A stretch of 64,000 nt of DNA from an uncultured virus (IMG/VR IMGVR_UViG_3300010883_027406). Taxonomy: Duplodnaviria; Heunggongvirae; Uroviricota; Caudoviricetes. The notes under the pieces are model-generated. The model was not told the DNA's origin. It searched no databases and saw only the letters and a list, made by a program, of their open reading frames with translations. Of this stretch, positions 1,438 through 15,958 are shown piece by piece (within the stretch, counting starts at the first letter, position 1; every line of letters starts with the position of its first letter). The stretch spans positions 21,365 through 85,364 of the IMG/VR virus record IMGVR_UViG_3300010883_027406; one strand, written 5' to 3'. The position numbers and the translations under genes are program-made.

Positions 1438-3534
1438 ATGCCATCGAAAACGGTTAAAAATTCAAAATTGGATAAAGTTGCGAAGAGCTTTGATATAGAA
1501 GAATTTAAGGTTCTTCATGAAGAGATGACTTTTTCTGAATATCTAGAAAAGATACATGAAAATCCACTTCTCATTAGAACAGCATATCAAAGATTGTATG
1601 ATATGATCATGGAGAAGGGATTCACGGAGTTTGAGCGGTATAGAAAAAAGCTTAATCGTTATCATTTTTTTGAAAATGAAAAAATTCCTATTTTTGGGTT
1701 AGAAGAAACACTTGATAACTTTGTTAAATTTGTCAGAGGGGCCGCAGGCGGGTACGGGACTGAAAAACGTGTTTTATTGTTTCATGGGCCTGTGGGATCT
1801 GCTAAGTCTACTATTTGCCGAGCGATAAAAACAGGTTTAGAGGCATACTCCAAAACGGACGCTGGTGCGTGGTATTCATATAAGTGGATTAATTTGCCTA
1901 CTGGACAAGATGGAATTTATACGCATGACGAAGACGACTGTCCGATGCACGAAGATCCCATCAAGCTTATCCCTGATAAAATAAGGTCTAAAGTTGTTGA
2001 AGATCTCAATGTGATTTTAAGAGAAAATTGTCCTGAAGATAAGAGATCGACTTTATATTCTTTAAAATGTGATGGGAATCTTAATCCACGGTGCAAACTG
2101 TTTCTTGCCGAGATGCTGGACAGATATGATGGAGATTGGAAAAAAGTTGTTAACGAACACATTGTTGTCGTTAGAAAAGTATATTCCGAGGCGGATCGTA
2201 TGGGAATTGCAACTTTTCAGCCTAAAGACGAAAAAAATCAGGATGCAACTGAATTGACTGGTGATATTAATTATGCCAAGTTGCCTCACTTCGGATCTGA
2301 TTCTGATCCTAGAGCATTTAATTTTGATGGCGAGTTTTGTGTGGGTAATCGAGGTGTTGTTGAATTTATAGAGATGCTTAAGTTGGCGCAAGAGTTTCTT
2401 TATGATTTGTTGGGGGCATCACAAGAACGTCAGATTAAACCCAAGAAGTTTGCCCAAATATCTGTTGACACGGTTTTAATAGGTCATACTAACAACCCAG
2501 AATACGAGAAGCTTAAGAGCAATCAGTATATGGAAGCTTTGAGAGATAGAACATATAAAATTGATGTGCCTTATCTTCTTAAGTGGTCTGAAGAGGTTAA
2601 GGTTTTAGAGCAGGATTATGGTGAGGGTCAGGTGCAGCAGCATGTTGCTCCTCATACTTTGGAGATTGCGGCTCTTTGGGCAGTTTTGACCAGATTGCAT
2701 GAAGATAAAGATGGAAAATTATCTTTGGTTGATAAAGCTAAACTTTACGATGGCCGAGCTTTGCCAGGGTGGACTGATGATTCTGTTAAAGAGCTTAGAG
2801 ATAAATATCCTGGTGAGGGCATGAGTGGTGGCGTTAGTGCAAGATACGTTCAAGACAAAGTTTCTAATTGCTTGAGTGATAATCATGCCTATATAAATCC
2901 ATTTATGGTTCTTAACGAGCTTAAAGCTGGGCTAGATCATTCTTCCTTGTTTACCAACAAAGAAGATGTTGCAAGGTATTTGAGTGCTGTGGATTTGACG
3001 ATTAAGGAATATGACGAAATTGTTAAATCGGAGGTTCAAAAGGCTTTGGTTGGAGACGAAGATTCAGTTATTAGACTTTGCTCTAATTACATTGATAACG
3101 TGATGGCTTACATCAATAAGTCTAAGGTTAAAAATCCGTATACGGGACAAGACCAAGAGGCAGATGAAAGATTGATGAGAAGTATAGAAGAAAAAATTGA
3201 TGTCCCTGAACAAGCGGCAGATGATTTCAGACGTTCGTTGGCAGCTTTTATTGGCGATTTGGCTCATAAGGGGAAAGAATTCCAATGGGATTCTAATCCT
3301 CAATTAAAGAAGGCTCTTGAGGCCAAATTGTTTGAAGATACTAAAGATCACATTAAGCTTTCTGCTCTTAATGTAAAGGGGGCAACGGTGGTGGATCAAG
3401 ATCTTCAAGATAAGATAGATGCTATTAAGACGAGACTTGTTAAGCAGTGTGGATATAATGATCAATCGGCTACTGATGTGTTAGATTATGTTGGTAGCAT
3501 ATTTGCTCGTGGCGACTTGGCCGGAAACGAATAA
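1438..3534 (+). CDS. prkA: PrkA/YeaG family AAA+ serine protein kinase
   Basis: Walker A HGPVGSAKST, NRGVVEFIEMLK, EALRDR, APHTLE, GMSGGVSARY motifs; 698 aa; followed by YeaH and SpoVR. Confidence 0.95.
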   Translation: MPSKTVKNSKLDKVAKSFDIEEFKVLHEEMTFSEYLEKIHENPLLIRTAYQRLYDMIMEKGFTEFERYRKKLNRYHFFENEKIPIFGLEETLDNFVKFVRGAAGGYGTEKRVLLFHGPVGSAKSTICRAIKTGLEAYSKTDAGAWYSYKWINLPTGQDGIYTHDEDDCPMHEDPIKLIPDKIRSKVVEDLNVILRENCPEDKRSTLYSLKCDGNLNPRCKLFLAEMLDRYDGDWKKVVNEHIVVVRKVYSEADRMGIATFQPKDEKNQDATELTGDINYAKLPHFGSDSDPRAFNFDGEFCVGNRGVVEFIEMLKLAQEFLYDLLGASQERQIKPKKFAQISVDTVLIGHTNNPEYEKLKSNQYMEALRDRTYKIDVPYLLKWSEEVKVLEQDYGEGQVQQHVAPHTLEIAALWAVLTRLHEDKDGKLSLVDKAKLYDGRALPGWTDDSVKELRDKYPGEGMSGGVSARYVQDKVSNCLSDNHAYINPFMVLNELKAGLDHSSLFTNKEDVARYLSAVDLTIKEYDEIVKSEVQKALVGDEDSVIRLCSNYIDNVMAYINKSKVKNPYTGQDQEADERLMRSIEEKIDVPEQAADDFRRSLAAFIGDLAHKGKEFQWDSNPQLKKALEAKLFEDTKDHIKLSALNVKGATVVDQDLQDKIDAIKTRLVKQCGYNDQSATDVLDYVGSIFARGDLAGNE

Positions 3535-3548
3535 AAAGGAGCATTGTC

Positions 3549-4775
3549 ATGCCACGTCGAATCGAATCTGATCATAAAGACTTTAGGGACGTTGTCTCTG
3601 GCCGTATAAGAAAATCTCTTAAAAAGTATATTAATACGGGCAAGGTTTTTAGAAGAAGATCTAAAAACGGAAAAGTAACAATATCCATTCCTAGAATTGA
3701 TATTCCTAGACTTGTTTTTGGAGACAATGGGGATGGGGTAGGTCGTGGCGAAGGAAAGGAAGGGGACGTTGTAGGCAGAGACCCGCAAAAAGGCAAAGGG
3801 AATAAGGCGGGAGATCAAGAAGGAGAAGGGATATTAATTAATTTAGATCTGGAGGATGTCCTTTATTTCTTGCAGGACGAATTAAAGCTTCCTAACATTA
3901 AACCCAAGCCTAATGAAACTTTTCAAGAAGTTAAACTAAAATATAACAATATTGCTTTGACCGGACCTGAGTCTCTTCGTCATAATCGTCGAACTATGTT
4001 GCAGGCGTTAAAGCGAATGGCCGCAGGCGGCGAGTTAGACAAATTGCATTATATACCTGGGTATTCTGACCCGGTGCGATTAATCACTCCAATCAATTCT
4101 GACCGTCGTTATAAGCAATATACTGAGATTAAAGTTCCTGCTAGCAATGCTGTGATTTTCTTTGCTAGAGATGGTTCGGCTTCAATGGATCAATATAAAT
4201 GTGATATTGTTTCTGATATGTCTTGGTGGATTGATGCTTGGATTAGACATTTTTATGAAAGAGTGGAAAGATGTTATATTTGGCATGACACAGTGGCCCA
4301 AGAGGTAGACGAGGAAACATTTTATAGATATCGTTATGGTGGTGGGACAAAGTGTTCTTCTGCCATGAAACTTATTGGTAAGCAATTTGAGAATAGATTT
4401 CCTCCCAACAAATGGAACATCTATGTGATATATTTTACTGACGGAGAAAATTGGCAAGAAGACAATGCTTCGTTTATAAAGTCCATACAGGATTTAACTA
4501 ATGGTGGGGATGTTAATTTTGTGGGAATCTCACAGGTGATGGCTTATAACTATGAACAAAGTTTAAAAAATACCGTAGACGAATCTTTATCAAAAGGCGT
4601 TCTTGATAAAGATCTGGTGAGGACGACAGATATCTCTCCTGCTGATGGGTTATCGGCTCTTAGTGACGATGAGCGAGACGAGGCTATTAAAAATTCTATT
4701 ATAGATTTGCTGGGTGATGCATCGAAACCTGTTGCAAAGCCTGTTGCTGTTGATCCATCTGCTGGGGGAATTTAA
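3549..4775 (+). CDS. yeaH: YeaH/YhbH (DUF444) vWA-like protein
   Basis: DGSASM MIDAS-like motif, GGGTKCSS, FTDGENW; canonical position between prkA and spoVR. Confidence 0.92.
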   Translation: MPRRIESDHKDFRDVVSGRIRKSLKKYINTGKVFRRRSKNGKVTISIPRIDIPRLVFGDNGDGVGRGEGKEGDVVGRDPQKGKGNKAGDQEGEGILINLDLEDVLYFLQDELKLPNIKPKPNETFQEVKLKYNNIALTGPESLRHNRRTMLQALKRMAAGGELDKLHYIPGYSDPVRLITPINSDRRYKQYTEIKVPASNAVIFFARDGSASMDQYKCDIVSDMSWWIDAWIRHFYERVERCYIWHDTVAQEVDEETFYRYRYGGGTKCSSAMKLIGKQFENRFPPNKWNIYVIYFTDGENWQEDNASFIKSIQDLTNGGDVNFVGISQVMAYNYEQSLKNTVDESLSKGVLDKDLVRTTDISPADGLSALSDDERDEAIKNSIIDLLGDASKPVAKPVAVDPSAGGI

Positions 4776-6376
4776 TGAGCAAGTTTATGCATGGTTCCTC
4801 GGTTTTATTGGGGAACAATACTATTCCAGGTGTTTCAATACCTGCGGAGTTAGAAGTTCTTATCCCTACGATATTGCAGGAATGTCGAGATTTTGGATTA
4901 GACTTTTATCCTACTGTGGTTCAAATGCTCACTTATGACGAGATGAGCGAAATTGCTAGCTATGGAGGATTTCCTGTTAGGTATCCTCATTGGAAATGGG
5001 GAATGGAATACGAGGAGTTGCAGCGTGGTTATGAATATGGGATGCATCGGATATATGAACTTGTCATTAACACATCTCCATGTTACTTATATTGTTTGAA
5101 TTCCAATACTTTAGTTGACAACATCACTGTTATCGCCCATGCGACTGGGCATAATGACTTTTTTAAGAATAATATATTCTTTGCTCCCACTAGTCAAAAT
5201 ATGATGAATCGTTTGGCAAACAATGGAACACGCATTAGAAGATATATGAATCGTTGGGGGAAAGAAAAAGTTACTGAATTCATTGATCATGTGCTTAGAT
5301 TGGATACGTTGGTCGATCCTGTTAATGCTTGGTCTAAAAAAGAAATTAAAGATCCTGTAATTAGAGATTCAAGAGTATACAATCACCCTAAACGGTTAAA
5401 AGTCGAACATGGTTATATGGAGCCATGGGTTAATACCGAGAAATGGATTTCCCGCCAGCATGAGGATATTCAAAGAGGAGAGACAGCCGCAGAGTTAGGG
5501 CTGTTCACAGAGCCGCAGAGAGACATCTTGGGGTATTTAAGAGATTATGCTCCTTTAAAACCCTGGCAGGCTGATATAGTCGCTATGTTGTATGAGGAAG
5601 CTATGTATTTTGCCCCTCAAAGGGCGACAAAGGTTTTGAATGAAGGTTGGGCGAGTACGATTGATTTTGAAATTATGGCCAAGAGAGGCTTTGTGGGATT
5701 GGGCCAAGCAACTCATGATTGTGGAATTATTGATTATGCTCGGCATAAAACTGGAGTGTTGGGCGGAAAATATAGCATGAACCCTTATAAGTTAGGGTTT
5801 TATCTTTTCATGGATATTGAAGAAAGATGGAATAAGGGGAGATTCGGAGCCGATTACGAAAATTGTCAGAATATGAAGCAAAAGGAAAATTGGGATGAAG
5901 GTGTTGGATTAGGCAAAGACAAAATGTTTGAGGTAAGAAAGTATTATGATGATGTAAATGCTATTATGGAATTTTTTACGGAAGACTTTTGTAATAAATA
6001 TGAGTTTTTTGAATGGGAAAAATTTCCTAATGGGGAATACAAGATAAAGAGTCGTGATCATAAATCTATTAAATCTAAATTAGTTCGCCGCCACTTAAAC
6101 GGCGGATTGCCAGCGATACAATTAGTTGATCCTAATTATCAAAACAAACGACGGTTTTTACTCCAGCATCAGTGGGATGGTCGGGAGCTTTATCTTCCAT
6201 ATGTTAAGGCCACATTAACATCCATTTATGCTTTGTGGCAAAGTGATATATTATTAGCTACTAGGAATCGAGACAACGAGGAGATTGTTTATTTTTGTAA
6301 TGGCGTTAATGAAGAGGATGTTTTTGTGCTTACTAGAGAAGAGTGCGAGGGATTATCGTCTGAGTTGGAAGAATAG
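4775..6376 (+). CDS. spoVR: SpoVR/YcgB family protein
   Basis: GFPVRYPHWKWG, IYELVIN, AHATGHNDFFKNN, TKVLNEGWAS, NPYKLG. Confidence 0.95.
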   Translation: MSKFMHGSSVLLGNNTIPGVSIPAELEVLIPTILQECRDFGLDFYPTVVQMLTYDEMSEIASYGGFPVRYPHWKWGMEYEELQRGYEYGMHRIYELVINTSPCYLYCLNSNTLVDNITVIAHATGHNDFFKNNIFFAPTSQNMMNRLANNGTRIRRYMNRWGKEKVTEFIDHVLRLDTLVDPVNAWSKKEIKDPVIRDSRVYNHPKRLKVEHGYMEPWVNTEKWISRQHEDIQRGETAAELGLFTEPQRDILGYLRDYAPLKPWQADIVAMLYEEAMYFAPQRATKVLNEGWASTIDFEIMAKRGFVGLGQATHDCGIIDYARHKTGVLGGKYSMNPYKLGFYLFMDIEERWNKGRFGADYENCQNMKQKENWDEGVGLGKDKMFEVRKYYDDVNAIMEFFTEDFCNKYEFFEWEKFPNGEYKIKSRDHKSIKSKLVRRHLNGGLPAIQLVDPNYQNKRRFLLQHQWDGRELYLPYVKATLTSIYALWQSDILLATRNRDNEEIVYFCNGVNEEDVFVLTREECEGLSSELEE

Positions 6377-6503: not shown

Positions 6504-7190
6504 ATGGTCTATAAGAAAGACGACAAGACTAAAAAGCCGGACATAACGCAAACTCTTAGTGATGTTCATGCCCATTGTGTTAATTTGCATAGTAGGGAAA
6601 TATATTTACATCCTAGGTACTCTGACGATGAAGGTGGCATCGAATATAAGATGGCCACAACCTTCATAAAAAATCTTCATTTGTTGAACCATGGAAGTAG
6701 AAAAAATATTTTGGTTCACATGCAAACGGATGGTGGCTCTTGGGCAGATGGAATGGCAATGTTTAATGCCATCAAATTCTCCAAGTCGCCGGTAACAATT
6801 CTTGCCTACGCTCAGGCGTCATCAATGAGCGGAATATTATTACAGGCAGCGGACAAAAGAGTTTTAATGCCTGATTGTTATTATATGATTCATCATGGAT
6901 CAGTTTATATTGATGATAATTCCATGGCTGCAAGTTCGGCGGTCGAGGTTAATAATAGCCAGTGTAAAAGGATGTTGCAAATATTTTCTGAAAGAGCTAT
7001 AAATGGAGAGCATTTTAAGGATTCGTCTGAACCTCAAGTTACAAAATTTATAGATAAAAAAATTAAGGAAAATAGTGATTGGTATTTAGCTCCTGATGAT
7101 GCTGTTTATTATGGTTTTGCTGACGGAGTTTTGGGGGACGATGGAGTGGAAACATTAGAAAAAATAAGGATTGGTAGAAAAATAAAATAA
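6504..7190 (+). CDS. clpP: ClpP-like ATP-dependent protease proteolytic subunit
   Basis: GGS..G, ASSMSG (nucleophile Ser), MIHHG (His), DWYL....AVYYGFAD (Asp). Confidence 0.88.
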   Translation: MVYKKDDKTKKPDITQTLSDVHAHCVNLHSREIYLHPRYSDDEGGIEYKMATTFIKNLHLLNHGSRKNILVHMQTDGGSWADGMAMFNAIKFSKSPVTILAYAQASSMSGILLQAADKRVLMPDCYYMIHHGSVYIDDNSMAASSAVEVNNSQCKRMLQIFSERAINGEHFKDSSEPQVTKFIDKKIKENSDWYLAPDDAVYYGFADGVLGDDGVETLEKIRIGRKIK

Positions 7191-7751
7191 ATGTCAAAAA
7201 CAAAAATTCCTATTAACGAAAAACCTCCCCATGAACGAGTTAAAGTTGGGAAGAAGAATGAAAAGAGAGTTATAAATTGTCTCAACAAGCATCATAATTG
7301 GAATCTTGAGGAGGCAACAAGAGAAGAAGACAGAATAGAAAAAGTGGATTGTTATGAGGTTTCAAAAACGGGCAAGAGATTAGCTGCCCAAGTGAAAACT
7401 CGTGTTAGTGGAGATGATATATTAGTTGATATTTTTGAGCCTTATTACGGTATAGATGATGATAGAACCAAAAAAGGCCGTGATACATGTAGAGATTATG
7501 ATCTTTATATTTGCCTTTCTAAGGACGGCAAAACTATAAGAGTTGTTAATGGGAAGGCTCTTAAAAGAATGCTTAGAAAGTTGGCTAATAAATGGAAGAG
7601 TGAAAACTGCCGACTTCCATTTACGTTTGATAATGATTGTGAATTTAAATGGCACAGAGACAGGTGGAGTGGCGTTCCTAAATTGTTATGCTTCATTCCT
7701 CCTGAAGTTTTTAAAACCGGCACAGAGATTACTTTTTTTGACATGAAGTGA
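7191..7751 (+). CDS. hypothetical protein, possible PD-(D/E)xK-fold nuclease
   Basis: E...ED..KVD...AQVKTR pattern resembles the restriction-like nuclease core. Confidence 0.5.
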   Translation: MSKTKIPINEKPPHERVKVGKKNEKRVINCLNKHHNWNLEEATREEDRIEKVDCYEVSKTGKRLAAQVKTRVSGDDILVDIFEPYYGIDDDRTKKGRDTCRDYDLYICLSKDGKTIRVVNGKALKRMLRKLANKWKSENCRLPFTFDNDCEFKWHRDRWSGVPKLLCFIPPEVFKTGTEITFFDMK

Positions 7752-7755
7752 AATT

Positions 7756-7911
7756 ATGGATATCAATAAATTTTTGTTCTCTCCTTGGACAATGATTCGG
7801 GTTAACAAGGAAACGTTTTTTAAACAGCACCCAATGAATGATGAGACTAGTTTTGTTTTAATTGAATCTCGTAGTTATATTTACACTCAAAAAGAACAGC
7901 TTTTAAAGTAA
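7756..7911 (+). CDS. small hypothetical protein (51 aa, not in ORF track)
   Basis: ATG..TAA ORF MDINKFLFSPW...EQLLK fills the gap between neighbours. Confidence 0.5.
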   Translation: MDINKFLFSPWTMIRVNKETFFKQHPMNDETSFVLIESRSYIYTQKEQLLK

Positions 7912-7923
7912 GAAGTTTGATCT

Positions 7924-9270
7924 ATGAAACACGAAGTTTGTGGATTTGAACATTTGCATTTGCACACGGATTTCAGCCTCCTAGATGGATTTGGGAAAGT
8001 TGAAGAATATGCTGCTCGTGCCCCAGAGATAAATCAGCAATTTCTCTGCGTAACAGATCATGGGATGCTAGGGGCTGTTCCTCGCCAAATAAAATCTTGT
8101 GAAGAAAATGGCATTAAGCCCATATTTGGCTGTGAGCTTTACGTGAACCCCATGCAGCCTGAGGCAAAAGATTTGTCTGAGTTGCATGCTGTCACTTCTG
8201 AATTTGGCCCAGAGGAAAAAGAAAAGCTTAGAAAGTCTTATCATCTTTTAGCCATTGCATATAATGATGTTGGATATAGCAATTTGGTTAATCTTTGTTC
8301 ATGGGCGTGGCTCAATGGGTATTATTACCGGCCCAGAGTTAATCATGAAATGCTGATGAAACATAAAGAAGGTCTTATTTTTACTTCTTGTTGTATCAAC
8401 AGCGAAATCGGGCAGGCGTTTCTTAAGGAAGGGGAAGAATCTGCCTTTGCTATGGTTGAAAAATATATGGCCATGTTTGGTGAAAATTTTTATCTTGAAC
8501 TTATGATGTTAGATTTTGATAAGCAAAAGCCATATGATAAGTTTATTATAAAAGCTCATGATAAGTATGGGATTCCTATAGAACTTACTCAAGATTGTCA
8601 TTATTGTTATAAAGAAGATTCACACTACCAAAGATTGACCCTGATGATACAGGGGAATAAGACAGTTGAGGATGTTCGAAAAGCAGAAGAGCAAGGGACT
8701 GCGGGAGACATGTTTGAGTTGCAAGATAAGAATCTTTGGATGAAATCTGAGGATGAGCTTAATGAAAAATGGGAAAGCGATTATTCAGATGTTATTGATT
8801 ATGATTTGTTCAAACAGGCTAAAAAAACTACTGTAGACGTTTGCAATAAAGCTAAGGGAGTTGAGTTAGATAGGTCTATTAAATTGCCGCAAATACCTGA
8901 CGCAAATGAAAAGCTTATGGAAGCCATCATCGTTGGATTTAAAAGCAGGAACCTTCCTAAGACTAATAAGTATTTAAGTCGCATTAAGGAAGAGTATGAA
9001 TTAATTTCCAAAAAAGAATTTTCTAGTTATTTCCTTATACAAAAGATGATGACGGATGAGGCCCGTAGGGTGTGCCCCAAGCTTTTGGGCTGGGGGGACG
9101 GGTCAGAGGCAGTTGGTGCAGGTAGAGGGAGTGCTGTAGGGAGTTTGATTTGTTATTGTCTTTATATAACGGACGTAGACCCAGTCCACCATGATCTTTT
9201 GTTTTCTAGATTTATGAGTGAGGCTCGTGGCGGTAAATCTATGAAGCTTAGATTTTCTAAGGTCGGCTGA
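7924..9270 (+). CDS. dnaE: DNA polymerase III alpha, N-terminal fragment (PHP domain plus first palm segment)
   Basis: HLHLHTDFSLLDG, TDHG, KPIFGCELY, YYRPRV, TQDCHY, GAGRGSAVGSL, ITDVDP..HDLLFSRF; ends just before the PDxDxD motif. Confidence 0.93.
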   Translation: MKHEVCGFEHLHLHTDFSLLDGFGKVEEYAARAPEINQQFLCVTDHGMLGAVPRQIKSCEENGIKPIFGCELYVNPMQPEAKDLSELHAVTSEFGPEEKEKLRKSYHLLAIAYNDVGYSNLVNLCSWAWLNGYYYRPRVNHEMLMKHKEGLIFTSCCINSEIGQAFLKEGEESAFAMVEKYMAMFGENFYLELMMLDFDKQKPYDKFIIKAHDKYGIPIELTQDCHYCYKEDSHYQRLTLMIQGNKTVEDVRKAEEQGTAGDMFELQDKNLWMKSEDELNEKWESDYSDVIDYDLFKQAKKTTVDVCNKAKGVELDRSIKLPQIPDANEKLMEAIIVGFKSRNLPKTNKYLSRIKEEYELISKKEFSSYFLIQKMMTDEARRVCPKLLGWGDGSEAVGAGRGSAVGSLICYCLYITDVDPVHHDLLFSRFMSEARGGKSMKLRFSKVG

Positions 9271-9761
9271 TGAAAATAGTGCTAACAGGCGGTACTTTTT
9301 GCAAATCATATTGCCCTCATCAAGGCTCCATGATATTTGATCGTGACAAGGCTCTGGCTGCATTTTATGATATTGTCAAATTTGTTAGATTCATTAATAA
9401 ACCAAAAATTGCTGTATGGGATTTAGTAGATTCTCGTGAAATGCAGACTTCTGATCGAGAAGATCTTTATTGTTTTTGTGAATCATTGGATGATGATAAA
9501 ATTGTTATTGTTCACGGCACAGATATGATGCAATACACGCTGGAACATTTCTCCCAGAAGAAAGATCTGTCAAAAACATTTGTTTTTACAGGATCTTGGG
9601 TTCCTTGGGCACATGACAAATCAGATGCAGTGTTTAATTTGGGCTATGCGATGGCTTGTGCTGATTATAAGAAAAAGGGCGCATACATAGCTATGAATGG
9701 ACATTGTTTTGCTGATGATGTTAAGAAAAATTGGAAAGCACTAAAGTATTATAAGGATTGA
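9270..9761 (+). CDS. short asparaginase-family protein (N-terminal domain only)
   Basis: LTGGTF, HGTDMM, VFTGS, SDAVFNLG motifs. Confidence 0.82.
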   Translation: MKIVLTGGTFCKSYCPHQGSMIFDRDKALAAFYDIVKFVRFINKPKIAVWDLVDSREMQTSDREDLYCFCESLDDDKIVIVHGTDMMQYTLEHFSQKKDLSKTFVFTGSWVPWAHDKSDAVFNLGYAMACADYKKKGAYIAMNGHCFADDVKKNWKALKYYKD

Positions 9762-9765
9762 AGTT

Positions 9766-9957
9766 ATGAAAATAACAATAGAATCTCGTGGAGAGTTGCC
9801 CAATAACTGTAAGGGTTGGGTTGTTAAGATAGAAGATGGAGAATATGTGCAAGAGACGGCGTTTTCTTTGTTTGAAGAAGTATCTGCTTTTCTTGAAGAT
9901 GGTTTTTGCGTGGACGACCCTGATCGATGGATGGAAGGTTTGGCCGGTAAGCCTTAA
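9766..9957 (+). CDS. hypothetical protein
   Basis: 63-aa ORF directly after the asparaginase-like gene. Confidence 0.6.
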   Translation: MKITIESRGELPNNCKGWVVKIEDGEYVQETAFSLFEEVSAFLEDGFCVDDPDRWMEGLAGKP

Positions 9958-10101
9958 TTAATTATCTTCTTTTTTAAAAGAGACTGACTCAAGCCTCTGT
10001 TTCTCGGCGTTCCATTTACACTCGTAGATCTTTTGGGGCTTGCGCCCTCCTTCCTCTTCAATCTTATCTTTTTCTTTTTTAAATGATAATATTTTAGTCA
10101 T
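9958..10101 (-). CDS. small hypothetical protein (47 aa, not in ORF track)
   Basis: MTKILSFKKEKDKIEEEGGRKPQKIYECKWNAEKQRLESVSFKKEDN; ATG overlaps upstream stop (ATGACTAA). Confidence 0.6.
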   Translation of the reverse strand: MTKILSFKKEKDKIEEEGGRKPQKIYECKWNAEKQRLESVSFKKEDN

Positions 10102-11284
10102 CAGATTTTTTAGATTTCTTCCATTCTTCATGAGTTTTGTTTTTGTGAACTGAATTGCAAGATTTGAAAGGGTGATCCTTCATCATGTCAAATTTGGACT
10201 TTCCCTTATCCTTGGATTCTTCCTTATCATCCTTGGATTCTTCCTTATCATCATCCTTGGATTCTTCCTTATCAGATTTTTTAGATTTTTTCCATTCTTC
10301 ATGAGTTTTGCCAGGATGAGCTTTCTTGCATGATTTGCCAGGATGATCCTGCATCATTTTAAAAGCATCTTTTGATTCAACGTATTTTCCGAATGCGCTT
10401 TCGTCCACGCCAGCATCCCAACTGCCAGCTTTTTGTTCGTCTTCATGATCATGATCATGATCATAATCATCATCGTGTCGGTGCCATCGTGGTGAACCAG
10501 ACCCTTGATCAATGTCATGTTTTTTTAACATTTCTACTATTTTGGGGAAATGTTCATCTAAAAGCTCTTCAATATCTTCTCTTTCTACTTCAAGGTCGGA
10601 TGCAACTTGATGAAGTATTTCTTTTGATGATTTGTGTTTGTATTCTGGGCTGTGCATAATTGACATTATTTTAGCATTCACCATGTCCCCGAATTTAGGA
10701 TCGGCAGAATGACCGTGTCCTACTGATTTTTGCTCGATGGCAAACATGCCTTTAGCGTGTTTTGAGTTGACCAGAGGAGCGTCCATGTCGTCTAGACCTG
10801 CATCTTTGTACATTTGAATGATTTGATCTGCGGTTGCCTTATCAACTTCTGAACCTTTGGGATGTTTGGCGTATATTTGTTTATCTAGCTGATTGCTGTC
10901 GTGCAACCCTTTCTCATTCTGTTGGCGTTGCGTCCTGATCAACGTCCTACCACTTCCGTCCGGGGCGGGGTTTTTTCCGCCCTGCGAAAGTTGAGCAAAA
11001 TAATTATCAGTGGAACCAAGCGATTTCGCCTGCTCGTCTAAGACATCAACTATTTTTTTTTTGGAGGAAGGAACTTCAGTATCGGGTTCCCAAACCATGT
11101 TTTTATCGCCAACGTCGCCTAAACCTTGATCACCTTTAACTTTAATTCCTTTGCCCACATAGGGAGCCTTGTGGCCTTTAGGAGCCTTTGGAATGCTGTC
11201 GTGGTAGTCTGCCTTTAGTTCTTCTCTAGGTTTGACTAGTTTGCCTTTTTTATTAACGTATTCTTTGAATGATTTAAATTTCAT
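10094..11284 (-). CDS. low-complexity charged protein with capsid-targeting-like N-terminus, putative internal virion protein
   Basis: Start at MKFKSFKEYV overlaps pspC stop (ATGA); HD-rich tract, KEESKDD x3, duplicated MMxDHPxKSC..H..KTHEEWKKSKKSD. Confidence 0.7.
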   Translation of the reverse strand: MKFKSFKEYVNKKGKLVKPREELKADYHDSIPKAPKGHKAPYVGKGIKVKGDQGLGDVGDKNMVWEPDTEVPSSKKKIVDVLDEQAKSLGSTDNYFAQLSQGGKNPAPDGSGRTLIRTQRQQNEKGLHDSNQLDKQIYAKHPKGSEVDKATADQIIQMYKDAGLDDMDAPLVNSKHAKGMFAIEQKSVGHGHSADPKFGDMVNAKIMSIMHSPEYKHKSSKEILHQVASDLEVEREDIEELLDEHFPKIVEMLKKHDIDQGSGSPRWHRHDDDYDHDHDHEDEQKAGSWDAGVDESAFGKYVESKDAFKMMQDHPGKSCKKAHPGKTHEEWKKSKKSDKEESKDDDKEESKDDKEESKDKGKSKFDMMKDHPFKSCNSVHKNKTHEEWKKSKKSDD

Positions 11285-11463
11285 AGTTCTTCCTCTTTGG
11301 GCATTAGTAACCAAAGTAATAAGTAGATAATTGGCCCGACGCCAAAAGCCAAAAAACCTACAACAAATACAAGCCTCATTATTATAGGGTCAATTTCTAA
11401 GGATTTTGCTAGTCCTGAGCATATCCCTGCGATTACTTTATTGTTTGAATCTCTCTTAACCAT
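11281..11463 (-). CDS. pspC: PspC domain membrane protein
   Basis: RDSNNKVIAGICSGLA...DP..MRL...IIYLLLWLLMP. Confidence 0.9.
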   Translation of the reverse strand: MVKRDSNNKVIAGICSGLAKSLEIDPIIMRLVFVVGFLAFGVGPIIYLLLWLLMPKEEEL

Positions 11464-11511
11464 ATTGGCCCTTTCGTATATACTATTTATGTATTAATTT
11501 CTTATTTTAAA

Positions 11512-11518
11512 CTAAATA
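11512..11518 (+). promoter_or_regulatory. putative late-type promoter element (TAnATA, 5 nt before ATG)
   Basis: CTAAATA-tacac-ATG; same spacing at six other genes. Confidence 0.55.
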
Positions 11519-11523
11519 TACAC

Positions 11524-11706
11524 ATGAAAAACATAGAAGGTTTAGACCTTAAAAAGGCTGAGACATTATTAGAAAAAGAAAACAAGGTTATTCGTGTAGC
11601 TAAGTTGGATGGCGAACCGCTCATTTTGACTTGTGACTATATGCTTGGCAGAGTTAATGTTGAAGTTGAAAACGATAAGGTTGTTTCCATAATTGGAGAA
11701 TTTTAG
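11524..11706 (+). CDS. peptidase-inhibitor-like small protein (I78/potato inhibitor I fold)
   Basis: GL...AE...IRV...LTCDYMLGRVNVEVENDKV pattern (TxDY..xRxN). Confidence 0.7.
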   Translation: MKNIEGLDLKKAETLLEKENKVIRVAKLDGEPLILTCDYMLGRVNVEVENDKVVSIIGEF

Positions 11707-11734
11707 TTTACAATTTTCTTTTTTGAAGTATAAT
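11707..11734 (+). promoter_or_regulatory. sigma70-type promoter for tmRNA
   Basis: TTTACA-16nt-TATAAT just upstream of the ssrA 5' end; second TATAAT at 11735-11740. Confidence 0.6.
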
Positions 11735-11747
11735 TATAATAGACTTA

Positions 11748-12103
11748 GGGCTGGAAATGGTATCGATTGGCTGTTGAGTTCTTGAGTTGCCTGTAGGAGT
11801 TGATCGGAAGGCTCCTTAAAAATCCGATTAAAAATTTAGTTGACAAAACTAATTTCGCTATGGCTGCTTAATTATAAGCAACCCAAGTTTCAAAGGTCTG
11901 CCAGTGACGTTTGACAACTTGCCGCAATACTGGCTGCGTTCAAAACAAATCAAACTACTTTTGAACTAAGATTCGTTGTTTGATAGTTGATTTAAACCTT
12001 TGTTTGTTGTGGTTTAATGATGCGAAACTCAAACATCAAACTATACAGGTAGACGCTTTTGAATAGGTAGTGCAAGACACGGGTTCGACTCCCGTCCGGT
12101 CCA
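11748..12103 (+). ncRNA. ssrA: tmRNA
   Basis: 5' GGGCTGG pairs with 3' CCGGTCC-A with G3.U70; T-arm ACGGGTTCGACTCCCGT; tag ORF 11842-11871 GAC AAA ACT AAT TTC GCT ATG GCT GCT TAA = (A)DKTNFAMAA*; CCA not encoded. Confidence 0.95.
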
Positions 12104-12106
12104 CTG

Positions 12107-12140
12107 AAGCTCCCCTCGCATTGCGAGGGGAGCTTTTTTT
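12107..12140 (+). terminator. Rho-independent terminator after tmRNA
   Basis: AAGCTCCCCTCGC-ATT-GCGAGGGGAGCTT inverted repeat followed by a T run. Confidence 0.92.
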
Positions 12141-12186
12141 GTTATGATGTTGTTTTTTCAATTTATATGCATTAAACTTGATTTTC

Positions 12187-14688
12187 ATGGATTCTAAAGA
12201 AAAATTGATTGGTTTGTGCGCTCAATTTCTTAAAAAGAAGGGGCTTGATGATGATGCGCATAAGAACAGATTAAAAGAAGAATTAAAAGAAATTGAGATT
12301 CAAAACGAATACGATTATTTTGTAGATCTTTATGAAGAAGGAATCAAAGCTAGCAATAATGAAAATAATTTGCTTATTCCTTATCTTTTGGGCATGGTAG
12401 ATGAGTTTGATATAAATTCTAGTTATGGTTTTGTTTATGGCGATTTCCCTGATGTCGATATAGATTATCTTCCCACGGTGCGAGATTATTTAAAAAATGA
12501 ATGGGCACCGAAGTTTTTTGGAGAAGACAAGGTTTGTAATATTGGAAATTATACTACTTTTGGAATTAAGAGTGCTTTAATTGACATGGTTCGGGTGCAT
12601 TGTGGCAACAGGGAAGAGATGCTTAATATGACAACCCAGCTTGGGATTAAGGATAGTGCTGGTAATAATTTAACTTGGGAAAAAGCTTTAGAGGAAAATC
12701 CATTATTATTTAAATATTGTGAAGAGAATCCTGATATATCAATTGCCGCACAAAAAATGATTGGAAGAAATCGTGGCATGGGGATGCATGCTGGTGGTTT
12801 AATCGTGTCTAGTTCTCGGATTGACAATCTTGTCCCTCTTGTTAGGGGAAAAGATAAAACTCAAGTTTCTGCGTGGGTAGAGGGGTTGAGCGGTCAGGAC
12901 TTACAGCCTGTTGGGTTGGTGAAGTTTGATCTTTTGGTTATTACAAATAACCTTCAGGTGGCCAAGTGTTGTAAACTAATTAAAGAGCGACACGGTGTTG
13001 AACATATTAATGCCCTGCCAGGTCAGTCAGATTGGTCTGATATAGCTTATTTGAATGATCCCAAAGCGTTGGAAATGGCTAATCGTGGAGATCTTAAATG
13101 TGTTTTTCAATTTGATAGTGATGGAATTCGTCAACTTGCAAAAATGGGAGGCGTAACATCATTTGATGATTTGGTTGCTTATACTTCTCTCTATCGACCT
13201 GGCCCGTTGCAAGAGAAAATGCATGACACTTATACGAATAGGAAAAGAGGAATAGAAGAATATGAAATGAATCCTTTGATAGAGCCTGTTTTGGGTGTTA
13301 CTTATGGCGTAATGGTCTATCAGGAACAGATAATGCAGATGTTAAATGTGGTGGGAAATATTCCGCTTAGAGATTGTGAGATTGTTAGGAAGGCAATCTC
13401 TAAGAAGCAAGTAGAAAAATTTACTAAATATAAGGAAATGTTTGTTGAGAATGGGCAATTTAATTTAGATGAATCTAAAGAGAATGTAGAAGAGTTGTGG
13501 AAGCAAATAGAAGCATTTGCTGGTTATGGTTTTAATAAAAGCCATGCTTGTGCTTATACTTATTTGTCATCTCGTTTGTTGTGGTTAAAGGCTCATTACC
13601 CGATTGAGTTTTTTGCGTCTATTTTAAGCTGTGAGGGAAATTCGGATAAAATTAGAGAATATAAAATTGAATCATCGCAACATGGTGTAGAGGTTTGTCC
13701 TTTGGACATTAATAAGTCTAATGTTGAGTTTAGTATAGTTGATGATAAGATATTTTTTGGGATATCAAATATAAAAGGAATTGGAGAAGTTCCCGCTGCG
13801 AAAATTGCTTCCGGTGGGCCTTATAATTCGTTTAAGGAATTTCTTAATTCCTTTGGCACGGATGCGAATGTGATAAAGCCGTTTGTGTGTTTGAAAGTTT
13901 TTGAAGATGCCGAACCAGTTAAGCTTTATAAGTACTATGAGTTTTATAAGTCCCAAAGAAAGAAGATAGAGGACCGTAGGAAAAGATTTCAAAAGTCAAT
14001 GGAAAAGTATCAAGAAAAATTGCGGGATCTTTTGCCGGGTTTAGAAGAATTTGCTGTTTTCGATGACAGGTATTTTGATAAGTGGGAGGAAAAGTTTAAT
14101 GTTGATCGTTGGAAGGAATTGGACAAATTAAGAAAAAGACGTAATCGTTCTATTGTAAATTTCAATGAAAAGGAAAAGCTGGGATCAGATATTGTGGATG
14201 TTTCTGAGTTTGAAGATGAGGGATATGAAATATATGATGATGATCTTTTGGAATTGTTAAATAATGAACAGTTGGCTGAGTATAAGTTTTATGGATTTGG
14301 CTGGATTCATCCTTTGCAAAATAGTCCTGATTTTGATGGCAACAAAACGTTTGATCATTTTAGAGCGGAACATAATGTTTCTACTTGGGGCGTGGAAGTT
14401 GTAGTTGTTAAAGTAGAGCAAAAACTTTCAAAGAATAAAAAAACCAAGTATTGGTTGATAGAGGTAGAAGATGCAAATTGGGAAAGGAATAGGGTGATTT
14501 TTTGGTCGGATGATTGGGTTCGTTGGAAGGAGGATGTGCAGGTGGGGAATATTTTAAAAATGAGAATGTCAAAACCTGATCCTCCTTTTAAGAGCTACAA
14601 GTTTGACTCTCAGCCGAGACATAAAAGGCATTTAATTCCTAAAGAAAAATCTAATGACTTTAGAATACTAATGATGAACAAAGGATAA
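12187..14688 (+). CDS. dnaE: DNA polymerase III alpha, C-terminal catalytic fragment
   Basis: FPDVDID, GMHAGG, GLVKFDLL, VFQF, LYRPGPL, MVYQEQIM, FAGYGFNKSHA, WLKAHYP, HhH IKGIG, C-terminal OB-like region; no PHP domain, no GRGS. Confidence 0.95.
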   Translation: MDSKEKLIGLCAQFLKKKGLDDDAHKNRLKEELKEIEIQNEYDYFVDLYEEGIKASNNENNLLIPYLLGMVDEFDINSSYGFVYGDFPDVDIDYLPTVRDYLKNEWAPKFFGEDKVCNIGNYTTFGIKSALIDMVRVHCGNREEMLNMTTQLGIKDSAGNNLTWEKALEENPLLFKYCEENPDISIAAQKMIGRNRGMGMHAGGLIVSSSRIDNLVPLVRGKDKTQVSAWVEGLSGQDLQPVGLVKFDLLVITNNLQVAKCCKLIKERHGVEHINALPGQSDWSDIAYLNDPKALEMANRGDLKCVFQFDSDGIRQLAKMGGVTSFDDLVAYTSLYRPGPLQEKMHDTYTNRKRGIEEYEMNPLIEPVLGVTYGVMVYQEQIMQMLNVVGNIPLRDCEIVRKAISKKQVEKFTKYKEMFVENGQFNLDESKENVEELWKQIEAFAGYGFNKSHACAYTYLSSRLLWLKAHYPIEFFASILSCEGNSDKIREYKIESSQHGVEVCPLDINKSNVEFSIVDDKIFFGISNIKGIGEVPAAKIASGGPYNSFKEFLNSFGTDANVIKPFVCLKVFEDAEPVKLYKYYEFYKSQRKKIEDRRKRFQKSMEKYQEKLRDLLPGLEEFAVFDDRYFDKWEEKFNVDRWKELDKLRKRRNRSIVNFNEKEKLGSDIVDVSEFEDEGYEIYDDDLLELLNNEQLAEYKFYGFGWIHPLQNSPDFDGNKTFDHFRAEHNVSTWGVEVVVVKVEQKLSKNKKTKYWLIEVEDANWERNRVIFWSDDWVRWKEDVQVGNILKMRMSKPDPPFKSYKFDSQPRHKRHLIPKEKSNDFRILMMNKG

Positions 14689-14735
14689 ATGTAAACTATA
14701 TTATAAAGTGATCAATACTTATTGAGGTTTAACTT

Positions 14736-15272
14736 ATGATTGATAATGAAACAAAAGAAGAAATTGAAATAACAGAGGATAATTTTGAGGAGTATTTTTT
14801 TGATGTTCGAAAGCATGATCCTGAACGTGGTCAAATTCTAGCTAGGTATATGACCAAAGCTGAATTTATAGATGGTTTCATGAAAAGAAACGTGATTTCG
14901 CTTCTTACGACACATAAAAATGCTGGTAATACTGCGCCTCAGGTCATGAGGAAGTTAGGACTTGCTCAAGAAGAGGACTCTATTAGTATATGTCGAGAAA
15001 TAGCGGAGGATTTAATGAGTGGGATGTCTGAAGATGAGGTGGCTGAGAAGGCATACCCCTTTACGTTGGAATGTTTTTTTTATGCGGAAAAAGAGAATGT
15101 GCCCACAGATGATCCTCATTGGGACATTGTTTCTATAAATAATTTGGATGAATTTTTGGAAGAAAATGAAGTTGAATCTAGCGAAATTGTGGACGATGTG
15201 GAAATTAGAACTAAGATAGTTTTTTCAGAAGATGAGGAAAAAGATAATATCGAGGATGATTCTGATAAGTAG
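14736..15272 (+). CDS. acidic hypothetical protein
   Basis: 178-aa ORF with GAGG SD. Confidence 0.75.
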   Translation: MIDNETKEEIEITEDNFEEYFFDVRKHDPERGQILARYMTKAEFIDGFMKRNVISLLTTHKNAGNTAPQVMRKLGLAQEEDSISICREIAEDLMSGMSEDEVAEKAYPFTLECFFYAEKENVPTDDPHWDIVSINNLDEFLEENEVESSEIVDDVEIRTKIVFSEDEEKDNIEDDSDK

Positions 15273-15343
15273 TTGTAGGAATACTATAAACAAAAAATAA
15301 GGAAACTGTTGCTTGTGCCTTTGGTAAAAATGGTCTGACAACA

Positions 15344-15350
15344 ATATATA
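15344..15350 (+). promoter_or_regulatory. putative late-type promoter element
   Basis: ATATATA-attac-ATG. Confidence 0.55.
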
Positions 15351-15355
15351 ATTAC

Positions 15356-15958
15356 ATGAGTAATGAAAATGAAAACAACCATACGTTCGGCCACGCAGTT
15401 GGCAAATCCTTGTCCGATGAGAATTTTGGAAAGTGGTGTGACCAATGGGACAAAGCGTTAGACGATGGCTTGTTTGATGATGCTCCTAATCCCAACACTC
15501 CGTCATCTCCTCCTGATTTAAGTAGTTATGATGCTGAATCGCTGCCGGATAATAGCAAACCTGCTGATGGAGTGCTGAACGAGTCTGATGCCGAGTATTG
15601 GAAGTCAGTTTATAATCTTTCATCCAATCAAGGTGATGCACCTGATGTGATTAAAGAAGCTTCTCCCAATGCCAAGGACTTGGGCAAAAGAGCCATGGTT
15701 GTGGCTAATGAGCCTAATCCTGTTAGAATTAATACTGTTGGTAAGGATCAAAATGCTCGTTCTGATTCATCCACATCAGACGCATTCCATAAATTAAGTG
15801 AACTTAAAAAGGAACTGCATTCAATTGGCGATCAACTTGCTGAGATGGGAGATTCTAATTTGGATGTAATTTATTCAAAAATTGATAAGATTCAAAGCAA
15901 GATTGATGAGTTGAGTGATTCACTTGTTCCAAATTATGTTTCTGATTCTGAGTCTTAA
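15356..15958 (+). CDS. hypothetical protein with C-terminal coiled coil
   Basis: 200 aa; heptad pattern LSELKKELHSI..IDKIQSKIDEL. Confidence 0.75.
   Translation: MSNENENNHTFGHAVGKSLSDENFGKWCDQWDKALDDGLFDDAPNPNTPSSPPDLSSYDAESLPDNSKPADGVLNESDAEYWKSVYNLSSNQGDAPDVIKEASPNAKDLGKRAMVVANEPNPVRINTVGKDQNARSDSSTSDAFHKLSELKKELHSIGDQLAEMGDSNLDVIYSKIDKIQSKIDELSDSLVPNYVSDSES

Follow-up and report, generated by a model that had tools for sequence, protein, structure and literature searches.

In a 64,000-nucleotide stretch of a marine huge phage (positions 21,365 to 85,364 of the uncultured virus record IMG/VR IMGVR_UViG_3300010883_027406; hereafter the window), the C-family DNA polymerase DnaE is divided between two separate genes. 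Gene 1 encodes the PHP domain and the nucleotide-binding part of the palm, while gene 2 encodes the catalytic Asp strand and the domains that follow it. We consider it likely, with a probability of about 0.7, that the two genes encode two never covalently joined subunits of one C-family replicase, with an active site that would be completed in trans. The main replicases of bacteria belong to the C family, and a single chain normally forms their palm. A natural, widespread and intein-free split between the nucleotide-binding motif and the Asp residues would mean that a C-family active site can be built from two proteins.

The source record of the window (G000) is an 85-kb viral record with an estimated completeness of 17%. 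The G+C content of the window is about 36%, and almost every gene in it lies on the plus strand. In the following, G001, G002, and G003 denote other phage records that were compared with it, and LR756511.1 is a relative with an intact DnaE. The coordinates of all features are collected in Table 1.

Two genes divide the DnaE domains at the catalytic Asp strand

Gene 1 contains the N-terminal PHP domain that is a hallmark of DnaE alpha subunits, with metal ligands that reach to H226, past the range of the Pfam PHP match. In an alignment of 28 rows, nine ligand positions (H12, H14, D21, H46, E71, H107, C157, D224, and H226) show either no variation or a conservation of 90% or more. Because all nine are kept, the PHP domain of gene 1 is probably a proofreading 3'-5' exonuclease. 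The C-terminal part of the protein reads RIKEEYELI..YFLI..GRGS..ITDVDP..LLFSRF, and residues 344-435 match PF07733 over profile positions 17-98 of 260 only. When aligned to solved structures, gene 1 corresponds to residues 6-396 of the E. coli polymerase III (Pol III) alpha subunit, to 9-416 of M. tuberculosis DnaE1, and to 6-240 plus 406-458 of the Taq enzyme. The nucleotide-binding motif is kept as [GA]RGS in 120 of 121 gene-1-type proteins, the last of which has an intein after GRG. The 116 of these 121 that read GRGS (the other five being four with ARGS and the intein-interrupted one) served as the gene-1 rows in the comparisons of C-termini below.

Gene 2 takes up the sequence where gene 1 leaves it. 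Its residues 89-253 match PF07733 profile positions 100-259, and the protein aligns with Taq 460-924 and E. coli 398-852, making the two halves complementary without a gap (E. coli alpha 6-396 for gene 1 and 398-852 for gene 2). The break is positioned directly before PDxDxD, between PF07733 profile positions 98 and 100. Seventeen gene-2-type rows show no variation at P91, D92, D94, D96, K249, and D251. By alignment to DnaE, D251 would be the third catalytic Asp, presumably the counterpart of D555 in E. coli. Neither protein thus holds a single-chain palm with both the Gly-Ser (GS) motif and the three Asp, since GRGS occurs in gene 1 only and PDxDxD and KFD in gene 2 only; the complete set of DnaE palm features is present in the pair and in neither protein alone.

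The fingers, helix-hairpin-helix (HhH), and C-terminal OB domains of DnaE alpha are all present in gene 2. The model of the OB region matches the OB domains of SSB, PriB, RPA, and Teb1 with a root-mean-square deviation (rmsd) of 1.9-3.9 Å over 72-102 aligned residues, and the model of the whole protein matches the E. coli and Taq alpha subunits with Z scores of 21.6-22.2 (rmsd 6.4-10 Å, 550-687 residues aligned). The start of gene 2 is more likely the ATG at 12187 than the TTG at 12178, because a 95%-identical homolog (P0001) begins there. A scan of both proteins, with a cut-off of E <= 0.01, found no intein family in either. A preliminary description of this stretch, drawn from its letters alone, had read gene 1 as a PHP domain with intact ligands that stops where PDxDxD would follow, and gene 2 as the remaining core with fingers, HhH, and an OB-like region, both without inteins. 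The Pfam matches, the E. coli, M. tuberculosis, and Taq alignments, and the structure matches agree with it on each of these points.

The ends of both proteins are degenerate copies of one palm segment

Upstream of its Asp strand, gene 2 carries an N-terminal extension of 90 residues, in which the preliminary description had recognized a second copy of the palm segment of gene 1 that had lost GRGS. Direct BLASTP of gene 2 residues 1-100 against gene 1 gave weak colinear matches (E 0.025 to 1e-4), so a comparison of profiles was needed to establish the homology. We therefore compared a profile of 27 N-extensions (gene 2 and 26 homologs) with one of the 116 gene-1 C-termini using hhalign. Residues 4-49 of the extension match residues ~325-371 of gene 1 with a probability of 89% and E 2.3e-6, pairing RLKEELKEI..YF in gene 2 with RIKEEYELI..YF in gene 1, and this confirms the second copy. 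The next piece, LLIPYLLGMVDEFDI against SLICYCLYITDVDPV, is a weak match in collinear order (E 8e-4, 15 columns). About 20 residues between the two aligned pieces, including the entire GS loop, have been lost from gene 2. In tblastn searches, gene 2 runs unbroken from residue 7-18 into intact phage DnaEs.

Roughly at the place of the gene 1 GS loop, the extension has a motif of its own, NENN, which is nearly invariant in the 27 rows (N61 100%, E62 96%, N63 92%, N64 100%). In the 17-row alignment, R31, L32, E35, Y47, N61, N64, and L71 of the extension are invariant. Positions that are invariant or at least 90% conserved number 15 of 90 in the extension and 136 of 836 in the whole gene 2 protein. 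The overlap is therefore not decaying freely, its conservation being close to that of the protein at large, and it does not look like the product of passive decay. The word "decayed" in the preliminary description holds in the sense of a degenerate copy and fails in the sense of an eroding one.

Gene 1 shows the mirror image of this arrangement, which the preliminary description had missed although it had proposed reciprocal degeneration. The last 16 residues of gene 1, the tail, lie at the place of the Asp-bearing strand and contain no Asp. They are conserved among the 116 rows at R435 (100%), G437 (100%), K441 (74%), L442 (77%), R443 (67%), and F444 (89%). In the gene-1-type protein of the relative G001, the Pfam match to PF07733 continues to profile position 108. 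As aligned, the overlap is degenerate on both sides, gene 1 having lost the Asp and gene 2 the RGS. A resemblance between the "SM" of the gene 1 tail and the canonical "SM" before PD was considered as a clue to re-fusion and dropped, as it hinges on an uncertain two-residue gap.

The split is conserved across large phage genomes

When viral contigs were scanned, three further records (G001, G002, and G003) proved to encode gene-2-type proteins that carry the same N-extension. Each of the three also encodes a gene-1-type protein of 444-467 amino acids that ends at the same point. G001 is a 511-kb genome with direct terminal repeats and an estimated completeness of 100%. The distance between the halves is about 9-11 kb in these records: in G003 they lie ~9 kb apart on one strand, and in G001 ~10.7 kb apart on opposite strands. 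The N-extension was also found in 24 proteins of a large protein collection, none of which has a PHP domain (0/24). Gene 1 matched 881 proteins of 246-784 amino acids at E <= 1e-20; among the best 120 of these 881, 117 are 426-481 amino acids long with PHP plus PF07733 only, and are borne by contigs of up to 634 kb.

Within the complete genome of G001, PF07733 matches nothing but the two halves, and there is no intact dnaE elsewhere. Family-B polymerases (PF00136) were found in none of the three records searched (G000, G001, and LR756511.1). Because the split form is apparently the sole C- or B-family polymerase in the complete 511-kb G001, some of the largest phage genomes known are probably copied by it. 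A PolA-like frame is present in G001 (409 amino acids) and in LR756511.1 (430 amino acids); these frames (G001:C1:37994-38653 and LR756511.1:393932-394588) give a partial match to PF00476 only.

The assembly of the window is upheld by independent sequence. DNA contigs from two other public runs, neither flagged as the source of the window, cover 7924-9851 and 10917-14413 with zero differences, so that the stop of gene 1 and the start of gene 2 are both bridged. Neither the DNA nor the RNA contigs showed a joint between the halves. Two metatranscriptome libraries gave contigs for parts of gene 1, for the opposite-strand open reading frame (ORF), for the transfer-messenger RNA (tmRNA), and for parts of gene 2; within gene 2, several bins of 12218-12895 are without RNA-library cover in X15 or X16, a kind of gap from which contigs can show neither absence nor level. 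With the same breakpoints in three records, hundreds of homologs, and agreeing contigs, the split is conserved and is neither a misassembly nor decay.

Gene-1-type proteins (P0145-P0264) very often contain inteins. Of the sites mapped in 86 long gene-1 homologs, 47/84 lie at about residues 400-405 (GRG/S), others at about residue 70 (13) and 200-250 (23), with single ones near 95 and 420; none of the mapped sites in these 86 is at the C-terminal break. On the gene 2 side, the G003 homolog (L007:7983-11852) and P0017 have an intein at GFNK/S...N/SHSYAY. The in-frame middle of the G003 intein is of low complexity, and a Cys-rich, 287-amino-acid ORF in another frame (L007 9670-10533) looks real and may be a nested free-standing gene.

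A predicted complex and the competing explanations

The gene 1 protein was modeled together with residues 1-545 of gene 2 using ESMFold2 and our own alignments. The interface score ipSAE for the pair was 0.83, 0.83, and 0.84, with 0.00 for the best of three controls; at least 87% of the contacts were shared between runs, and the predicted local distance difference test (pLDDT) of the partner was at least 89. On the gene 1 side, the interface includes the GRGS loop (residues 390-406) and the rest of the palm segment with the tail (415-448); on the gene 2 side, it includes the Asp strand (83-98), residues 100-114, and the FNKSH finger motif (453-463). Among the residue pairs with the lowest predicted error, 96-98 of gene 2 are matched with 396-398 of gene 1, and 455-459 of gene 2 with 405-406 of gene 1. 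All of residues 428-448 at the gene 1 end lie in the predicted interface, and residues 34-73 of the N-extension, around NENN, touch gene 1. When folded alone with AlphaFold 2, the proteins have a mean pLDDT of 85.6 (gene 1) and 82.2 (gene 2). The segments that fold poorly in isolation, residues 433-448 of gene 1 and 85-94 of gene 2, both below 50, are both in the predicted interface.

In the mechanism that we propose, gene 1 would supply the PHP domain together with the RGS-bearing, nucleotide-binding half of a Pol-beta-like palm, and gene 2 would supply the Asp triad, thumb, fingers, HhH, and OB. Docking would then place the GRGS loop of gene 1 on the Asp strand and FNKSH finger motif of gene 2, giving an active site in trans. 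Each end would retain a degenerate copy of the part held by the other half, the Asp-less tail in gene 1 and a helical N-extension of ~90 residues with NENN in gene 2. Since both copies are conserved and form part of the predicted interface, their present role is probably to keep the two proteins together. That gene 1 has kept its RGS so strictly, and that inteins cluster at this motif, would be odd for a mere handle and supports the trans model. The further idea in the preliminary description, that assembly of the halves could serve as a control point, is speculative. More tentatively, and with less than even confidence, the degenerate ends (the NENN extension and the KSMKLRF tail) could have been exapted as a docking module needed for assembly, in a lineage where the fission has also been reversed at least once.

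Several observations weigh against an active site shared in trans. The heterodimer suggested in the preliminary description does emerge from the complex prediction, but the pass (a mark that was reached by 58/80 solved complexes and 2/110 mismatched pairs, counts that are only a rough calibration here because our own alignments were used) may be a memory of solved intact DnaE, showing likeness to DnaE rather than binding. The place of the N-extension in the complex comes from the contact list alone. When gene 2 is folded by itself, the N-extension is modeled confidently (pLDDT 71-93), and the model as a whole aligns with E. coli alpha starting from residue 2 at chain residue 284 (Z 21.6, rmsd 8.2 Å, 550 aligned). 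Finally, the RNA-library cover of both genes could come from DNA carry-over, the contigs being no proof of transcription.

The alignment at chain residue 284 means that the N-extension could fill the canonical palm place in cis. Gene 2 would in that case be self-sufficient, with NENN standing in for the GS loop, and gene 1 would be a detached, epsilon-like PHP proofreader that kept its palm remnant as a docking handle, much as the preliminary description had offered in its alternative of a detached proofreading subunit. The conservation of the N-extension, the near-invariance of NENN, and the intact PHP ligands of gene 1 all fit such an arrangement. It is nevertheless disfavored, and we judge it unlikely: the extension lacks ~20 residues including the complete GS loop; the [GA]RGS of 120/121 gene-1-type proteins, around which the inteins cluster, is hard to explain in a handle; and the complex model sets the GRGS loop of gene 1, not the N-extension, beside D94-D96 and FNKSH.

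The two subunits might instead be rejoined or read as one, through a split intein, RNA trans-splicing, an intron, or translational bypass. Inteins are indeed very common in the family, with inserts in 86 gene-1-type proteins of the longer-length search and one at FNK/S in the G003 gene 2 homolog, and cyanobacterial DnaE is rejoined by a split intein. Both ends in the window, however, are homologous to palm sequence and free of intein families at the cut-off given above, and 0/86 long gene-1 homologs extend more than ~30 residues beyond the last aligned block. The halves are on opposite strands in G001 and are separated by opposite-strand genes, a tmRNA, and a terminator in the window; the DNA and RNA contigs contain no joints, and Rfam finds only the tmRNA in 7000-15500. 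Rejoining is, on this evidence, very improbable. We give still less credence to an artefact or to decay, that is, a misassembly, or pseudogene fragments with an intact dnaE elsewhere. The window record is an 85-kb fragment, and the rest of its genome is unseen. Contigs from other runs are nonetheless exact at both gene ends, the breakpoints recur in three records, the homologs are open and conserved in their hundreds, and the complete G001 has no further PF07733 match. The reading of genes 1 and 2 as two subunits of one replicase is the one we retain, and the pair would offer a ready-made system for studying how a PHP and nucleotide-binding module communicates with a catalytic core.

Origin of the split

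The closest intact relative, LR756511.1, has a DnaE of 1179 amino acids that is 56% and 45-46% identical to the two halves. Its dnaE locus shares gene order with the window, with SpoVR upstream and genes for proteins of 200, 384, and 379 amino acids downstream. In the window (6504-7190) as well as in G003 and G001 (L020 and L022), the gene-1-type gene has a ClpP-like protease gene upstream of it, immediately so in G001, a linkage that is thus conserved, and a PspC gene is also found upstream of the gene 2 homolog in G003. Because both halves are syntenic with the intact LR756511.1 locus, fission in place from an intact dnaE is likely. In the route that we envisage, an intact dnaE at this locus would have undergone a partial duplication of about 100 codons, yielding two frames each with a copy of the segment; reciprocal loss of motifs would have followed, with later growth of the spacer and, in G001, rearrangement. 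The conserved degenerate overlap would then be a clear example of fission through partial duplication, with the pieces maybe reused as an interface.

Intact and split forms were compared in trees of each half. The best 120 longer relatives include ~20 intact DnaEs, most of the others being gene-1-type proteins enlarged by inteins; 13 intein-free intact DnaEs of 1176-1194 amino acids were used in the trees, and the contigs that bear them reach 623 kb. The C-half tree (32 rows) groups the intact forms in one clade (99 in the Shimodaira-Hasegawa-like approximate likelihood ratio test, SH-aLRT) within an unresolved base of split lineages. The N-half tree (45 rows) unites them with P0122 in a clade with a support of 99, P0122 being a genuine split-type protein with the tail ARGGRSIRFRF. 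When that tree is rooted with the outgroup, whose long branches were flagged, this clade branches within the split lineages, above G001 and others, and the nodes concerned have a support of only 80-88.

The best trees therefore place the intact relatives among the split ones, which counts against the route of origin outlined above. On 23 of the 45 N-half rows under LG+G4, constraining the split forms to a single clade lowers the log-likelihood by 20.7 units and gives a p value of 0.078 in the approximately unbiased (AU) test, for a group named after the tree had been seen; at this value, a single fission with an intact sister clade is not rejected. Re-fusion in the intact relatives is a real possibility from the topology, and a rooting artefact may instead lie behind the nested intact clade. 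Of the fission by duplication and reciprocal loss that the preliminary description had put forward, the homologous, degenerated ends are borne out, and the trees allow more than one order of events. As close relatives include both split and intact forms, the direction of such events can be tested. If re-fusion did occur, the intact DnaE of the ~600-kb phages (LR756511.1 and its relatives) would be its product, and an essential replicase would have gone through a natural cycle of fission and fusion.

Comparison with other split enzymes

The dnaE of cyanobacteria likewise consists of two separate genes, whose products are rejoined into one chain by a split intein. That split is in the fingers near FAEY/CFNKSH. 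Unlike the cyanobacterial enzyme, the phage DnaE described here has no intein halves, and its break is in the palm before PDxDxD. In some T4-related phages, the family-B polymerase gp43 is split into two cistrons whose products must associate, an arrangement linked to the insertion of a mobile element. It too is a two-cistron phage replicative polymerase, but it belongs to another family and fold. In Bacillus phage vB_BauM_KLEB27-3 (OM634661.1, L004 3425-4432), dnaE is annotated as two coding sequences around an HNH endonuclease gene. In terms of gene 2 residues, KLEB27-3 dnaE is broken at about 313-329, within the fingers, whereas the window has its break in the palm. L004 4193-4408 gives a match to a group I intron of 22.2 bits (E 0.005), below the gathering score of 50. 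Given the HNH gene and this sub-threshold match between the pieces, RNA splicing probably restores one protein in KLEB27-3.

A search of the literature, in which supplements and subscription journals were not searchable, found no description of an intein-free split of a full-size phage DnaE; it returned papers on split inteins, a jumbo-phage review (PMC7824862), and a paper on the NrdA of phage Aeh1 (PMC3045599). In the passages found in Al-Shayeb et al. (2020; PMC7162821), dnaE is named just as a marker for tree placement. The closest precedent is in the review by Iyer et al. (2021, Viruses 13:63; PMC7824862), which, in its text, describes a "minimal" Pol III alpha in group 2.2 jumbo phages that is split into distant genes for an N-terminal half binding nucleoside triphosphates (NTPs) and a C-terminal half binding Mg2+ and template, and proposes reconstitution without splicing. 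According to the same text, this version consists of the core nucleotidyltransferase and template-binding parts only and occurs beside a family-B polymerase. Going by that description, the boundary between the NTP and Mg2+ subdomains is the same as in the window, and in both cases the genes are separate. What sets the present pair apart from the group 2.2 version, as described there, is that it is a full-size DnaE with PHP, thumb, fingers, HhH, and OB, that no family-B polymerase was found in G001, LR756511.1, or the record of the window, and that it has intact close relatives and reciprocally degenerated duplicate ends.

For the proposed role of the overlap, the best functional analogy among the texts consulted is the NrdA of Aeromonas phage Aeh1, which is split in two genes and assembles non-covalently (Crona et al. 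2010, NAR 39:1381; PMC3045599). According to that study, assembly cannot do without the terminal tails to which the split gave rise, and the cause of the split is the insertion of the homing endonuclease mobE. The Aeh1 tails are described there as new sequence, whereas the terminal pieces in the window are degenerate copies of the protein's own palm. No endonuclease family was found in the four intervening ORFs scanned here (9270-9761, 10094-11314, 11281-11463, and 11524-11706; 9766-9957 and 9958-10131 were left unscanned).

Genes between and around the two halves

Table 1. Features of the split dnaE region, in coordinates of the window.
Feature	Position	Strand	Basis or remark
Gene 1, DnaE N-half, 448 amino acids	7924..9270	+	PF02811, partial PF07733, E. 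coli alignment
PHP domain, residues 10-194	7951..8505	+	Pfam PF02811, E 1.5e-42
Functional copy of the duplicated palm segment, residues ~325-432	8896..9219	+	hhalign against gene 2 N-extension; PF07733 17-98
GRGS nucleotide-binding motif, G400-R401-G402-S403	9121..9132	+	invariant in 28/28 rows
Gene 1 tail, residues 433-448 (EARGGKSMKLRFSKVG)	9220..9267	+	at the place of the Asp-bearing strand, without Asp
Asparaginase N-terminal-like protein, 163 amino acids	9270..9761	+	PF00710, E 2e-17
Low-complexity His/Asp/Lys-rich protein, 406 amino acids, no Pfam family	10094..11314	-	ORF list, Pfam scan
PspC-domain protein, 60 amino acids	11281..11463	-	PF04024, E 2.4e-21
tmRNA, tag peptide DKTNFAMAA	11748..12106	+	ARAGORN; Rfam RF00023, 121.9 bits
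Terminator-like hairpin, 14 pairs (9 G-C) then T-run	12106..12136	+	between tmRNA and gene 2
Gene 2, DnaE C-half	12178..14688	+	836 amino acids from TTG 12178; 833 from ATG 12187
N-extension, residues 1-90, shortened second copy of the palm segment without GS loop	12178..12447	+	hhalign
NENN motif, N61-E62-N63-N64	12358..12369	+	aligned about at the place of the gene 1 GS loop
PDVDID, P91-D92-V93-D94-I95-D96, catalytic Asp strand	12448..12465	+	aligns with Taq 460 onward
K249-F250-D251, third palm Asp	12922..12930	+	alignment to DnaE
Fingers, residues 262-426	12961..13455	+	PF17657, E 6e-40
Helix-hairpin-helix, residues 503-560	13684..13857	+	PF14579, E 4.9e-11
C-terminal OB fold, residues 718-836	14329..14685	+	structure matches of model, Z 8.4-9.1

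The interval between the halves holds genes on both strands, a tmRNA, and a terminator-like hairpin, as first described; ARAGORN and Rfam agree on the tmRNA. The start codon of the asparaginase-like gene overlaps the stop codon of gene 1 (TGATG), which suggests that its translation may be coupled to that of gene 1, and the protein carries the N-terminal asparaginase domain only. The ORF on the opposite strand contains runs of His and Asp plus repeated KTHEEWKKSKKSD units, and RNA-library contigs of 1187 and 1669 nucleotides span it from one end to the other. For the ORF at 11524-11706, the Pfam scan gave a weak match.

A scan of 7000-15500 against Rfam found nothing besides the tmRNA, and a promoter scan gave 25 sites with 23.4 expected in shuffled sequence, which is no signal for or against a promoter of gene 2. 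Terminator-like sites are in total no more numerous in the region than in shuffles, and the stem at 12106-12136 is the longest by far. The tmRNA has the deepest RNA-library contigs of the stretch (depths 28.6 and 47.7, covering 11761-12094), and its contig in library X16 has adapter sequence at both ends, 11761 and 12094.

Elsewhere in the window, a trio of genes at 1438-6376 encoding PrkA (an AAA plus kinase-like protein), DUF444, and SpoVR resembles the bacterial yeaG-yeaH-ycgB stress module, and a gene at 26707-28332 encodes a thiamine-pyrophosphate (TPP) enzyme with all three TPP domains.

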